From the NCBI GenBank assembly GCA_951406725.2, contig OX597829.1, positions 49,414,001 through 49,478,000 of the forward strand: a DNA stretch of 64,000 nucleotides, in the 5' to 3' direction. The stretch is from Octopus vulgaris (lineage: Eukaryota). The translations under genes and the position numbers were made by a program. The notes beneath the pieces are model-generated. The model made no database searches and was not told the origin of the DNA. It saw only the letters and a list, made by a program, of their open reading frames with translations. Each line of letters starts with the position of its first letter. Positions within the stretch are counted from its first letter, which is position 1. This document shows, one piece after another, positions 14,221-63,695 of this stretch.

Positions 14221-14765
14221 AGTAGATAAATGAATTATCTTATTACGAATAATTCGAAAGATAACCGATACCTGGGTAGCAAACTCACAACAGAAAAAGC
14301 ACGGTTGAAGTTACGACCATAGGGCATATACTCCATGCCTTAGTGCAGAAATTTGAAGTTTAATTTAATATAATAAGTATAGGAAAGAATGGAGCTGAAC
14401 GAAGATTTAACAAAATTCCTTTATTTTATTTTCGACATATGTTTCGAAGTCTGCAAAATCCCTAATTCCGAATGAATAAGGAGTCCATTATGCAGCTTTC
14501 TCTTCAGGAAAATCCAGGAACTTCTTTGGCCAGCAAAATGCACAACACCATTATCGCTATGGGCTCCTCGTGAGCAGTCATCTAAAAACTTGTTGTGCAT
14601 TTTGCTGGCCAAAGAAGTTCCTGGATTTTCCTGAAGAGAAAGCTGCATAATGGACTCCTTATTCATTCGGAATTAGGGATTTTGCAGGCTTCGAAACATA
14701 TGTCGAAAATAAAATAAAGGAATTTTGTTAAATCTTCGTTCAGCTCCATTCTTTCCTATACTTAT
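14221..14765. mobile_element. Palindromic Penelope-pLTR-like insert in (TA)n, one hammerhead motif per arm
   Basis: Inverted arms 14373-14547 / 14591-14765, 43-nt spacer, one-sided extension 14221-14372, TA repeats on both flanks. Confidence 0.75.
14625..14710 (+). ncRNA. Type I hammerhead ribozyme motif (mirror copy 14428-14513 on -)
   Basis: ATTTTC [CTGAAGA] GAAAGCTGCA...TGCAGGCTTC [GAAA] CATATG TC| GAAAAT: 6-bp helix I, long helix II, palindromic minimal helix III, GUC site after 14704. Confidence 0.85.
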
Positions 14766-15858
14766 ATATATAATAAAAAGTCAAGGTACAATATGCACCC
14801 GTTTGCTTGAAAGAGGAGTTAAAATGCTCCAAAACTAAGCATCTCTCACTAAATATAAACATACCTTCAGCTGAACAACGCACACAGGAAGGTAAATATG
14901 TTTTTGTGAAATAGTTTACGTAGATTTTAGATCTGTTGGAGTGCATTTCTTTCCAGACATATGTGTTTGTGTGAGAGAGAGAGAGAAAGAGACAGGCAGA
15001 GAGAAAGAGAGAGAGAGAGGGGGAGTGAGAAAGACAGACAGACAAAGAGAGAGTGGGAAAGACAGAGCAAAAGGGGGAAAAAAATCGACCCCATTATTTA
15101 ATTGATACTCTATTTATCGATCCTGAATGGATGAAAGGCAAAATTAACCTCAACGGAATTTGAACTTAGAGTGCAGAGTCAGAACAAACACTTGCAAAGA
15201 ATTCTAACTTTAAGCTCAAACAAACTCCGTCAGCAGCCGACTGCAGTACACCTTAAAGGTAATAAAAATTGATTTCTTCTTAGACACACAAGACCAATTA
15301 TTTGAAGGGGAGGAATATATGTGGTTTTGTTCTTCCGGTTCCAATATATATATATATTGTTGATATTTATTTTATCGACTCGCAAAAAAATGAAAAGCAA
15401 CAAACTCAGAAATCAGACTGGCGTAACTAAGCGTTCAAAGGTATCTAGTTCAATATTTTAAAAGATCCAAGACCTTAAGCGGGTTACGATAATTGTGGCT
15501 TTTCGTGACCAACTCTTTGATGAACAGGAAAGCAAGCGGAACCATTTCAAAAGCTGAATATTTTACCATTTAATATTGGTAAGGAGAATATCTAATAGAG
15601 TGTAATGGTCAACAATATCAAAAGTAGCAGAGAGATGAATTTACGATTGCAACTGCTCATGTTACGCGATAAAATTCATTCAAAGCTTTTATGAAACAGC
15701 TTTCAGCTTCTCACGGTTGAAGTTGATGTGTGTGAAGGAACAGAGGGGGACGATGTAGCAACTTCTCAATTTCCGGGCGGGGGGGTGTCTTTATGGATTA
15801 TATATGTTCACCAGAGGGAGGTCATTTCACTGACCACACACTACACCGAGATAAATCT

Positions 15859-16130
15859 AATCGCAAAAGCCAGTGAAAATACCTCTATGTGGTCATTCTA
15901 CTTGCTCTGCTAGAAATAGCAACCGAACCTCTCTTAACTTATGTTACATAACCTTGAGAATAGAAAAAATACGTTGGATAATGTAAACCCTTAATAATCG
16001 CAAAAGCCAATGAAAATACCTCTATGTGGTCATTCGACTTGCTCTGCTAGAAATAGCAACCGAACCTCCCTTAGCTTACGTGACATAACCTTGAGAATAG
16101 AAAAAATACGTTGGATAATGTAAACCCTTA
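15859..16130 (+). repeat. Local tandem duplication, ~137-bp unit x2
   Basis: 'aatcgcaaaagcca.tgaaaatacctctatgtggtcattc...ggataatgtaaacccttaa' repeated at ~15859 and ~15996. Confidence 0.9.
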
Positions 16131-16477
16131 AAAAGGAGATGGCCGTGGTTGGAATGCCTTTGATCATATGTCTACACAGTTAGTGCCAATCTCAAATTAA
16201 ATGACAATGTAACTGCTTTTCCTTGAATTCCTTTCAGGACCATAGCTCTTCTCTAGAAATCTAATTACACTTTAATTGTTTTGGAAATAATTCAGAATTC
16301 AGAGGAATTTAAATTAAATATTTAACCTCTACCACTTTGGAATTTTAGTTTCAACAGACAGATCTCTTCAGTCACCATCTTACTTTATTTAGTTCAATAT
16401 TTTGACTACTTAAGATGGAATGTCAAATATTGAACTACGAAACATTAATCAATCAATCAATCCAGGCAGGTGACTTG

Positions 16478-60500: not shown

Positions 60501-60962
60501 CATACATACATACATACACACACATACATACATACATACATACATACATACATACATACATACATACATACATACATACATGCAGACATATATAGTATGG
60601 CACTATTAACCCACCACTGCCTCTCATCCCAATATCATTTTAAAAACATTTAATATTTGTTTTTGGCAAATTCTCTTCAAACTAGAGGGTGGCCTGACCC
60701 AATTAATTATATACAACAGAGAAAACTCCCCTATGAAGTCACATTTTAATGAAGTGGACGCTTTTTAATTAGGACGATGGACAATTTGATCCTAGGACCC
60801 TGCAAATCTGCCACCAACAAACTCTCAAGGAGAAGAGAGAGTGGAGGAATTGGAGAGAGAGACAGAGACAGACAGACAGACAGAAAGAGGGAAAAGAACA
60901 ATAGAAACTATCCTGCTTTCTAAGGTTACTTTGGAAATGGCTAACATCTATCAGCTAGCTTG

Positions 60963-61342
60963 CACGCAATGGCCCAGTGGTTAGGGCAGCGGACTCGCGG
61001 TCATAGGATCGCGGTTTCGATTCCCAGACCGGGCGTTGTGAGTGTTTATTGAGCGAAAACACCTAAAGCTCCACGAAGCTCCGGCAGGGGATGGTGGTGA
61101 TCCCTGCTGTACTCTTTCACCACAACTTTCTCTCACTCTTACTTCCTGTTTCTGTTGTACCTGTATTTCAAAGGGCCGGCCTTGTCACTCTCTGTGTCAC
61201 GCTGAATATCCTCGAGAACTACGTTAAGGGTACCCGTGTCTGTGGAGTGCTCAGCCACTTACACGTTAATTTCACGAGCAGGCTGTTCCGTTGATTCGGA
61301 TCAACCGGAACCCTCGTCGTCGTAACCGACGGAGTGCTTCCA
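60963..61342 (+). mobile_element. tRNA-derived SINE, near-identical to 917-1299
   Basis: Direct sequence match by eye. Confidence 0.9.
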
Positions 61343-63393
61343 ACTCACAAAGATTTTGGTCGATCCGTTGATGATGTGGTAGGAAATACTTGCCCAAGGT
61401 TCTCAGCGTGTTGGAGAACGATATGGAATCGTTGTTCGTTGTTTGAAGAGGCGAACGACTTTGCCTTGCTTTCGGAATTCGCTTGGTGGAATATTGGGGG
61501 ATTGTTTTTATGGGGTTTTGTTTTAATGGGGTTTTGTTTTAATGGGGTTTTGTTTTTTAACTATTGCAGATATAAAACGAAAAGCGTGGACGGATGGAGT
61601 GGATGTTAGGGAGAAAGAGAGAGGGGGGAGTGTGTGTGTGTGTATGTGTGTGATAGGGAGAGAGAGAGGTGGAGGAGAGAGAAGGAGAAAGAGAGAGAGA
61701 GAGAGGAGAAAGAGAGAGAGTGTGTGTGTATGTGTGTGTGATAGGGAGGGAGAGAGAGGGAGAGGAAGAAAGAAAGAATGAAAGAAAGAAAAAAGAGAAG
61801 AGTTGACGGAACCAGAGAGAGAGAGAGAGAGAGACAAATAAGGAAAGAAAATTGAAAGAAGGAATAGACAGAGCCAAAGAGAAAGAGAGAGAGAGAGGAG
61901 AAAGAGAATGAATGAAAGAAAGAAAGAAAGAAAGAAAGAAAGAAAGAAAGAACGAAGGAAAGAAAGCAAAAAAGTGAAGGTAAAGGGAACTACAGAGAGA
62001 GAGAGAGAGAGAGAGAGAAATAAGGAAAGAAAAATAAAAGATAGAGGAGGTAGACGGAGTGAGAGAGAGAGAGAGAGAGAGAATGAATGAAAGAAAGAAA
62101 GAAAGAAAGAAAGAAAGGAAGAAGAGAGAGACGGAGCCAAAGAGAAAGTGAAAGCGGTAGAAATAGTGAGAAAGAGAGAGAGAGAAAGAGAGTGGTTGTG
62201 TACGCGCGTGTATTCAAAAGAGAGAGAGAGAGAATTAGAGTGAAAGAAAGAAAGAAAGAAAGAAAGAAAGAAAGAGACTGAGTGTGTTGTGTCAGCGAGA
62301 GAGAGAGAGAGAAAGGGAGAATGTATGTGTGGGTATGTGGGTGTGAAAGAGGGGGAGTAGAAGGGAGAGAAAATCCATCTGGATAGGAAAAAAAACTGTT
62401 GAAAATATTCATTTTGAAGAATTTGACTTACATATGTCACATATATTCAGGACAAAATATGAAGACGAATTGGAAAAGCAGAAAACAGCCTGTTGCGTAT
62501 ACAGGGTATATATATATACAGGGTATACACACTCTCAAATACATATGCATTCATAATACAAGCATACGTACATACAGAATATATACACATAACCGGGTGG
62601 GTATGTGTATGTATATAGATAGATAGATAGATCGATCGATCGATAGATAGATACATACCTACATGCATACATACATACAAATATACATACAAATATACAT
62701 ACATACAAACATACCTGCATACACACATACATGCATACATACACATACACGCATGTATACACATACATACATATGTATATATATATATATATATATATAT
62801 CATTTATATATAAATATTTTTTTTAAATATTTTTCTCCGACCGAAGAGATGGTGTTGTGGATTTCCACTTCGGCATCTGAAACTCAGAGTTTTATCTTGA
62901 CTACCGAGTAATGTAACATATTGTATAGATATATATATATATATATATATATATATATATATATATATATATATCCATATATATATATCCATATATATAT
63001 CCATATATATATATATATATATATATATATATATCCATATATATATATATATATGAATATCGTTAACTGTATATATATATATATATATATATATATATGC
63101 ATGTATATATATATGTAGATATATGTATATATTTTGTCCTCGATGTATATATGTATGTATCTATACATACATATATGCATGCATGCATATATACATACAA
63201 ACATACATACATACATACAAACATATATGTATTGTATATATGTATATATATATGTTTGTGCGTGAATATATGTATGTATATTTATATACATATACATATA
63301 CATATACATATACATATATATATATATATATATATATATATATATATATATATATATATATATATATATATATATATATATATATATATATAT

Positions 63394-63695
63394 AAAAGGA
63401 AATGAAGAAAATGTTGACAAAATAATTTAAGTAATTTAATTAGGTGAAAGTTCTTTTTACCGGTTGCGCATTTGTTATGCTTATCAAAAAATATTTTTTT
63501 AAGAGGAAAAAATCTATCAGCAAAGAACTCTATCTCTCTTAAAAAATACCTTTTGATAAGCATAACAAATGCGCAACCGGCAAAAAAGAACTTTCACCTA
63601 ATTAAATTACTTAAATTAGTTAAATTATATTGTCAGCATTTTCTTCATTTCCTTTTTTATATATCACAACTCGTGTTCCACATCTCCTTTTTTAA
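63394..63695. mobile_element. Palindromic insert in (TA)n with hammerhead-like motif in each arm (U3-A8 core, GCAA in place of GAAA)
   Basis: Inverted arms ~63394-63505 / ~63535-63656 plus short right extension; minus arm 63491-63454: TTTT [TTGATAA] GCAT-AACAA-ATGC [GCAA] CCGG TA| AAAA. Confidence 0.7.

Follow-up and report, generated by a model that had tools for sequence, protein, structure and literature searches.

Penelope-like elements (PLEs) have been described with an adjacent inverted and truncated copy, a tail on one side only and (TA)n targets (PMC8557442), and with head-to-head pseudo-long terminal repeats (pLTRs) that form palindromes at their junctions (PMC3846280). Hammerhead ribozyme motifs are part of the same picture: in Schistosoma pairs of them lie 100-700 bp apart on opposite strands, and a core variant, U3-A8, occurs in PLEs (PMC4209133). 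In vitro, the reverse transcriptase (RT) of Poseidon PAc from Anolis starts at two internal sites, with cleavage and extension of both strands (PMC11167929). The basis of the inverted repeats and of intron retention has been called unknown, the latter being viewed as unexplained or as driven by selection (PMC8557442, PMC2377424). The subject of this paper is a 64,000-nt stretch of Octopus vulgaris DNA (contig OX597829.1, positions 49,414,001-49,478,000, forward strand), called "the window", whose coordinates are used throughout. It holds four head-to-head hairpin inserts with a hammerhead in each arm. Judged by the sequence of longer copies, they are pLTR end-pieces of four autonomous Penelope-like families. 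Their ends, their pairing and, in one family, a missing intron point to a way of making them: priming at two internal sites of the element RNA, run-off at its 5' end and head-to-head joining. We put the probability of this reading at roughly 0.6.

Ends of four Penelope-like families

Each insert belongs to a separate high-copy family, with 1,000-4,500 first-look candidates per insert in the genome (40 candidates of each genome search were scored). Walking upstream from longer copies leads without a break into PLE open reading frames (ORFs) in all four families. These ORFs were read in loci L102/L104/L227, L228/L231/L232, L225 and L224; a single ORF with a GIY-YIG endonuclease (EN) and, except in family 4, where none was recovered, an RT judged by its motifs lies upstream of the pLTR, and it is to the pLTR that the hammerheads belong. 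A preliminary description of this DNA had proposed just such a PLE origin, and the longer copies bear it out. The inserts also show the inverted pLTR, the one-sided tail and the 5' truncation of EN-positive (EN+) PLEs. Full copies of family 2 have a pLTR at both ends and were counted as tandems of hammerhead-bearing pLTRs; none of the other three families yielded a tandem.

Clade names for these families rest on motifs, not on a tree. Families 1 and 2, whose RTs are 47% identical, have DKT, no CCHH, and CxxC and CxH flanking E/N, all of them marks of the Hydra clade. A CxCX5C linker is present in family 2 and was not seen in family 1; at the RWK position family 2 has RIKWK, and for family 1, which has an RT and a GIY-YIG-like C-terminus, the N-terminus was not recovered. 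Families 3 and 4 have GIY-YIG domains recognized by Pfam, with CCHH. Family 4 combines a CX2-5CxxC linker of the Neptune type with a CCHH GIY-YIG at the C-terminal end of its ORF; in family 3 a CxxC linker and CCHH were seen, and on these motifs the label Nematis is possible. Homologues carried no PLE names, the Pfam search named no RT in any family and no domain for the Hydra-like proteins, and a structure search matched no solved structure. Families 1 and 2 have long asparagine-rich stretches between RT and EN (L227:3436-5505, L228:5361-6521), which recall the N-rich inserts of rotifer Penelope elements (PMC3846280).

Inverted arms with fixed outer ends, TA flanks and no ORF are also what miniature inverted-repeat transposable elements (MITEs) or foldback DNA transposons would offer. 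Such elements would have symmetric, fixed terminal inverted repeats, a constant interior, a target-site duplication (TSD) and no RNA step. The inserts have asymmetric ends and a variable apex, their arms occur solo, an intron has been removed and their copies are continuous with RT ORFs; the RT linkage and the spliced junction refute an origin of this kind, which the preliminary description had likewise disfavoured, and its probability is negligible.

The family-2 intron, 5' ends and paired arms

Long family-2 copies have a GT-AG intron of ~700-850 nt in the pLTR, between a short exon and the hammerhead. It is precisely excised, to the base, in both arms of insert 2. Genome-wide, exact family-2 junctions number 312 spliced and 94 unspliced, with 0 for reversed-pattern controls. 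The spliced copies not only lack the intron but also stop together: in the first 20 spliced loci by position (an unbiased choice), 22 of 22 spliced junctions are followed upstream by a stop 15-29 nt from the donor, at an initiator-like TCATT, and the short copies of the family stop downstream of a TATA-like box. The first 30 unspliced matches end otherwise: 24 at scattered positions within the intron (20-579 nt in) and 6 beyond the donor. A comparison of the 29 matches extending to 40 nt upstream of the donor shows that 16 of 18 unspliced ones continue for more than 150 nt further, against 0 of 11 spliced ones (Fisher p=2e-6). With the usual spacing of TATA and initiator elements as a guide, the 5' stop of the short family-2 copies is likely to be the start of the element's mRNA, a position set by copy ends.

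Might a single spliced master copy have been multiplied? This was considered and rejected: in a tree built from 43 rows, after the exclusion of 7 of 50 anchors that duplicated a pair or were too short, the spliced copies are not one clade. They interleave with the unspliced ones, with 12 label changes against a shuffled mean of 14; the spliced state has therefore been taken up on many occasions. The full copy L228 is spliced in its 5' pLTR but not in its 3' pLTR.

Comparison of short with long copies revealed no intron in families 1, 3 and 4. For families 3 and 4 the 5' ends were sampled from the best-scoring 30 loci of each monomer search, the window copy included. In family 3, 23 of 30 copies end at -3 to -13 from the hammerhead core; in family 4, 28 of 30 end at -34 to -64, ten of them at -58/-59, and this pile-up sits ~30 nt after a TATA-like box. 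Pile-ups of this sort could instead mark places where RT pauses or where joining by microhomology is favoured, rather than the end of an RNA; splicing would then be real and unrelated to the stop. Local palindromes at some of the stops in family 4, and the broad stops of family 1, would suit such an explanation. Family 2 speaks against it, in that the unspliced copies pass through the same exon-1 sequence at which the spliced ones stop (the 16 of 18 and 0 of 11 given above), and we regard it as improbable.

The 3' ends are no less orderly. Each family has two that are fixed, one with a tail and one without, and the classifiable family-2 pairs in position-chosen samples join one of each kind in 20 of 20 cases. 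Solo arms are common: the 48 family-2 insertions include 21 tail-less solos and 4 tailed solos, with 3 unclassed. Splice state is the same in both arms of all 28 callable pairs, in a set that is biased towards spliced pairs and includes 4 uncalled ones; inspection by eye of contigs C1-C5 gave 8 spliced pairs, 2 unspliced and 0 mixed within 3 kb. In family 4, also by eye, 38 of 100 listed long arms lie in head-to-head pairs within 6 kb. Arms diverge from their partners by 1.3-5.5%, and private variants are confined to one arm 159 times and present in both 17 times: the arms had a common source at insertion and then drifted apart. The same counts led us to reject gene conversion as the cause of the concordance between arms.

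Palindromes themselves are not what is copied, since 79 of them show 76 distinct junction geometries and solos are common. The proposal, made in the preliminary description, that ultra-short units form a mobile class of their own finds no support: every insert is a terminal piece of an autonomous family and is created afresh when it inserts, and the architecture has already been published.

The route that we favour would run as follows. The (TA)n target would be cut, and RT would prime from both strands at two internal sites of the element RNA and copy to the RNA 5' end; the two cDNAs would then be joined head-to-head. A tandem transcript would hold the priming sites twice. Priming in its 5' copy would yield a short, mostly spliced run-off product, comparable to the strong-stop DNA of retroviruses, and priming in its 3' copy would yield long copies with the intron, which is likely to be unspliced there. 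The hammerhead would be a passenger; folding predictions make the inserted palindrome a long hairpin with the motif buried inside. A more ambitious version of the proposal is that PLEs routinely make strong-stop-like cDNAs, with both strands of the cut target priming at two adjacent sites of one pLTR on a single RNA and, where that pLTR is the cap-proximal, spliced one, both products running off the 5' end; this is put forward tentatively, at slightly less than even odds. If it is true, 1) a single rule accounts for the inverted pLTR and its one-sided tail, for the abundance of short copies and for the retention of the intron; 2) the intron that is inherited is that of the unspliced 3' copy; 3) such genomes are a direct record of PLE start sites and splice junctions; and 4) they hold thousands of ready-made 100-250-bp hairpins.

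Fold-back, with the same origin and the same 5' run-off, is another way to make a tailed and a tail-less arm from one source. The first cDNA would prime itself near its 3' end. Copying would proceed up to an internal site rich in TA, and the second arm would end there, through a cut by the endonuclease or by annealing to the target. In its favour, pairs always combine a tailed with a tail-less arm, the arms agree in source and splice state, and short palindromes lie at junctions; self-priming with an antisense template has been proposed in PMC3846280, and resolution of the tail by the EN in PMC8557442. Against it, both arms contain sequence that is absent from their partner in 11 of the 78 pairs; deletions at the apex could account for the small cases. 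At L041 and L042, the tailed arm ends close to the start, and the tail-less one continues for another 500-600 nt. These non-nested pairs favour two cDNAs, although fold-back followed by later deletion could also yield them. The tail-less solos are common, so that the tail-less site also primes first strands. We consider fold-back unlikely. Spliced, start-ended copies in such pairs also argue against an antisense RNA template. (The ends of inverted arms do not pile up at the family-2 cleavage site among 22 partners, a weak result because the main arms were selected to hold the ribozyme.)

Several observations weigh against two-site priming with run-off, or at least against its simplest form. 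Most pairs (67 of 78) are nested or equal, as fold-back would also make them. The putative transcription start and the presumed spliced RNA are placed from genomic copies. In family 2, two full copies have an unspliced partial 5' pLTR, and eleven spliced copies extend 40-80 nt upstream of the donor, so that the start is not a single base. In family 4, 239 exact matches pass the presumed start, to be set beside 1348 first-look candidates (the two measures differ), and the 2 of 30 that read through in the top-scoring sample are likely to understate the true read-through; no RT was recovered for this family, and Pfam named none. Family-1 ends are broad, at -17 to -98 in a selected sample, and family 3 lacks a TATA box at the usual spacing.

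The inserts in the window and their host gene

The four palindromes lie where the preliminary description had placed them, and the architecture that it gave, a hammerhead in each arm, a tail on one side and TA flanks, is correct (Table 1). By inverted-repeat comparison the arms of insert 1 (14373-14547/14591-14765) are 99% complementary and those of insert 2 (21350-21598/21601-21849) 98%; by self-alignment, the self-inverted blocks of insert 3 (29279-29546) and insert 4 (63386-63664) stand at 89% and 82%. The tail-less arm of insert 1 extends 42 nt further 5' than its tailed arm, and the tail of insert 2 ends ~55 nt before the ORF start known from full family-2 copies. At the DNA level the inserts are, as had been said, without similarity to one another: the sole shared match is 15 nt long and AT-rich.

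Table 1. Features of the inserts and the host gene (window coordinates)
Feature	Position	Strand	Details
Insert 1, tailed arm; family 1 (Hydra-like PLE pLTR)	14221..14547	-	tail ~14221-14372; hammerhead 14507-14434
Insert 1, tail-less arm	14549..14765	+	starts in the family-1 5' pile-up zone; hammerhead 14631-14704
Insert 2, tail-less arm; family 2 (Hydra-like PLE)	21359..21598	-	spliced, exon junction 21573/21572; hammerhead 21559-21502
Insert 2, exon 1 (26 nt)	21601..21626	+	begins at initiator-like TCATT; continues into exon 2, the intron of long copies being absent
Insert 2, exon 2 of tailed arm	21627..21920	+	hammerhead 21640-21697; tail ~21841-21920
Insert 3, tailed arm; family 3 (CCHH GIY-YIG, possibly Nematis)	29215..29418	-	U3-A8 minimal hammerhead ~29405-29373; tail 29215-29278
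Insert 3, tail-less arm	29417..29546	+	hammerhead from 29420; GAAA to AAAA in this arm
Insert 4, tail-less arm; family 4 (Neptune-like)	63394..63505	-	U3-A8 core with GCAA; hammerhead from 63487
Insert 4, tailed arm	63500..63695	+	hammerhead 63553-63582, in this arm with C for the U that precedes the cleavage site; tail ~63660-63695
First coding exon, prohormone (neuroendocrine) convertase 2 (PC2)	49927..50154	-	protein match

Targeting of TA repeats was rightly proposed, and TA sequence does flank the inserts on both sides. The flanks are unequal, however: the run is long on one side of each insert and 3-23 nt on the other, with the short side measuring 9, 3 and 13 nt at inserts 1, 3 and 4. 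A TSD cannot be judged within TA runs. At another locus (L005, ~2090-2250) a family-2 arm lies directly in the TA run that adjoins a family-1 palindrome, which suggests that these families stack in common TA targets. The window also holds a short family-2 fragment (39917-39998, 80% identical).

Type-I minimal hammerheads, with core, stems I and II and a palindromic helix III, read outward from the centre in all four inserts, as previously described. Each arm of inserts 1 and 2 matches the strict motif (CUGANGA, stem II, GAAA, palindromic helix III, UH, stem I); the cores of inserts 3 and 4 are variants. Their U3-A8 is family-wide, as is a second change in family 4, where GCAA replaces GAAA in 77 of 82 matched arms, that of insert 4 included; one arm each of inserts 3 and 4 has an additional private change in the core. 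The window contains 6 matches to a relaxed motif; 40 block shuffles of it averaged 0.075 and gave 0 matches to the strict core. Homodimers through helix III are predicted at -2 to -12 kcal/mol. There was no hammerhead among the 150 matches listed by an Rfam scan, only below-threshold matches to microRNA-type hairpins. A fifth strict-core hammerhead stands solo at 19829-19866, in a different repeat and antisense to the PC2 transcript; related copies were present in 5 fetched loci.

Is the burying of these ribozymes the point of the arrangement? The preliminary description had held that the antisense arm silences the hammerhead. As a matter of predicted folding this holds: the complete inserts have folding energies of -143 to -379 kcal/mol, and stem II, whose pairing probability is 0.91-1.0 when it is folded in isolation, falls to 0.0 within every one of them. 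A need for silencing does not emerge, since solos are common, and the burying geometry follows from how an insert is made. PLE hammerheads are, moreover, nearly inactive alone: a single one did not cleave (PMC4209133), and protein was needed (PMC11167929). The short palindromes might nevertheless be a self-propagating non-autonomous class, selected because the antisense arm silences the ribozyme in introns. Thousands of candidates per family, the stable folds that bury stem II and the presence of three inserts in one PC2 intron could be read in that sense. The idea is hard to reconcile with palindromes that hardly ever share a junction geometry, with abundant solos, with spliced copies that form no single clade, with family-2 short copies that stop downstream of their TATA-like box and with the feebleness of the lone hammerhead itself; we hold it to be highly improbable.

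The host gene is identified by an exon with a 97% match to residues 1-76 of an octopus protein that bears the label neuroendocrine convertase 2. The 64-kb window showed no further PC2 exon; with only the first coding exon present, inserts 1-3 are placed in the intron that follows it. The neuroendocrine intron of the preliminary description is therefore the right address for three of the inserts, but insert 4 lies ~13 kb upstream of the start codon. Any effect of the inserts on the PC2 transcript, through double-stranded RNA, editing or cleavage, is hypothetical, though they may have one. Elsewhere in the window, inverted arms of ~1.3 kb (8944-11845), 99.4% identical, with a 300-nt spacer and flanked by a 9-bp direct repeat, resemble a Mutator-type element, young and non-autonomous, each arm of which contains a nested repeat. 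An array of 18-bp minisatellite units (16449-17006) was noticed in translations.

Comparison with described systems

The hairpin inserts themselves are a known PLE arrangement. Spliced, start-site-ended genomic PLE copies are apparently new: literature listings on Penelope together with strong-stop DNA, twin priming and intronless or spliced copies showed no such report, although older PLE papers and supplements may bear on this. Spliced copies that end at one point would help to explain how PLEs are copied and why the intron is kept in full copies, and their occurrence in start-ended pairs of tailed and tail-less arms makes the copying mechanism testable.

With the EN+ PLEs already described, the octopus families share the inverted 5'-truncated copy head-to-head with a pLTR, tailed at one end only (PMC8557442, Fig. 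2 legend; PMC3846280; PMC8969392), and the microsatellite targets that hide a TSD (same sources). The octopus tails are longer, ~40-150 nt against the 30-40 nt given in those texts, and an octopus insertion consists of only two pLTR ends, with 5' ends that pile up at one point. Families 1 and 2 agree with the Hydra clade of PMC8557442 in their canonical hammerhead and (TA)n targets, and family 2 in CxCX5C as well; family 2 differs in having N-rich linkers and a pLTR intron, and its unit, at ~4.9 kb, exceeds the <3 kb described there. Naiad ENs resemble that of family 4 but are N-terminal, whereas the family-4 EN ends its ORF.

The minimal PLE hammerheads of PMC4209133 are likewise of type I, with palindromic helix III, U3-A8 and an extra base between positions 9 and 10.1; the family-wide GCAA of family 4 is not met in the available part of that account. 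Non-LTR retrozymes (10.64898/2026.07.22.740005) are also non-coding, pLTR-related and equipped with type-I hammerheads. Their units, however, are tandem and head-to-tail, whereas the copies in the window are single head-to-head pairs and octopus inserts are made anew at each insertion.

Poseidon PAc (PMC11167929) has the same two internal RT starts bounding the tail, AT-rich targets and an uncleaved RNA as template; the two start sites in octopus, both rich in TA, might base-pair with the target. Inverted pairs and 5' run-off copies are not explained in the available portion of that paper. Drosophila virilis Penelope and Chlamys-3 (PMC2377424, PMC8557442, PMC4209133) share with family 2, where the start is putative, a start site in the pLTR, a short first exon and an intron, in the 5' untranslated region, whose end lies just before helix I of the hammerhead. 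In those elements the genomic copies retain the intron; in octopus, by exact junctions, spliced copies outnumber unspliced ones by ~3:1.

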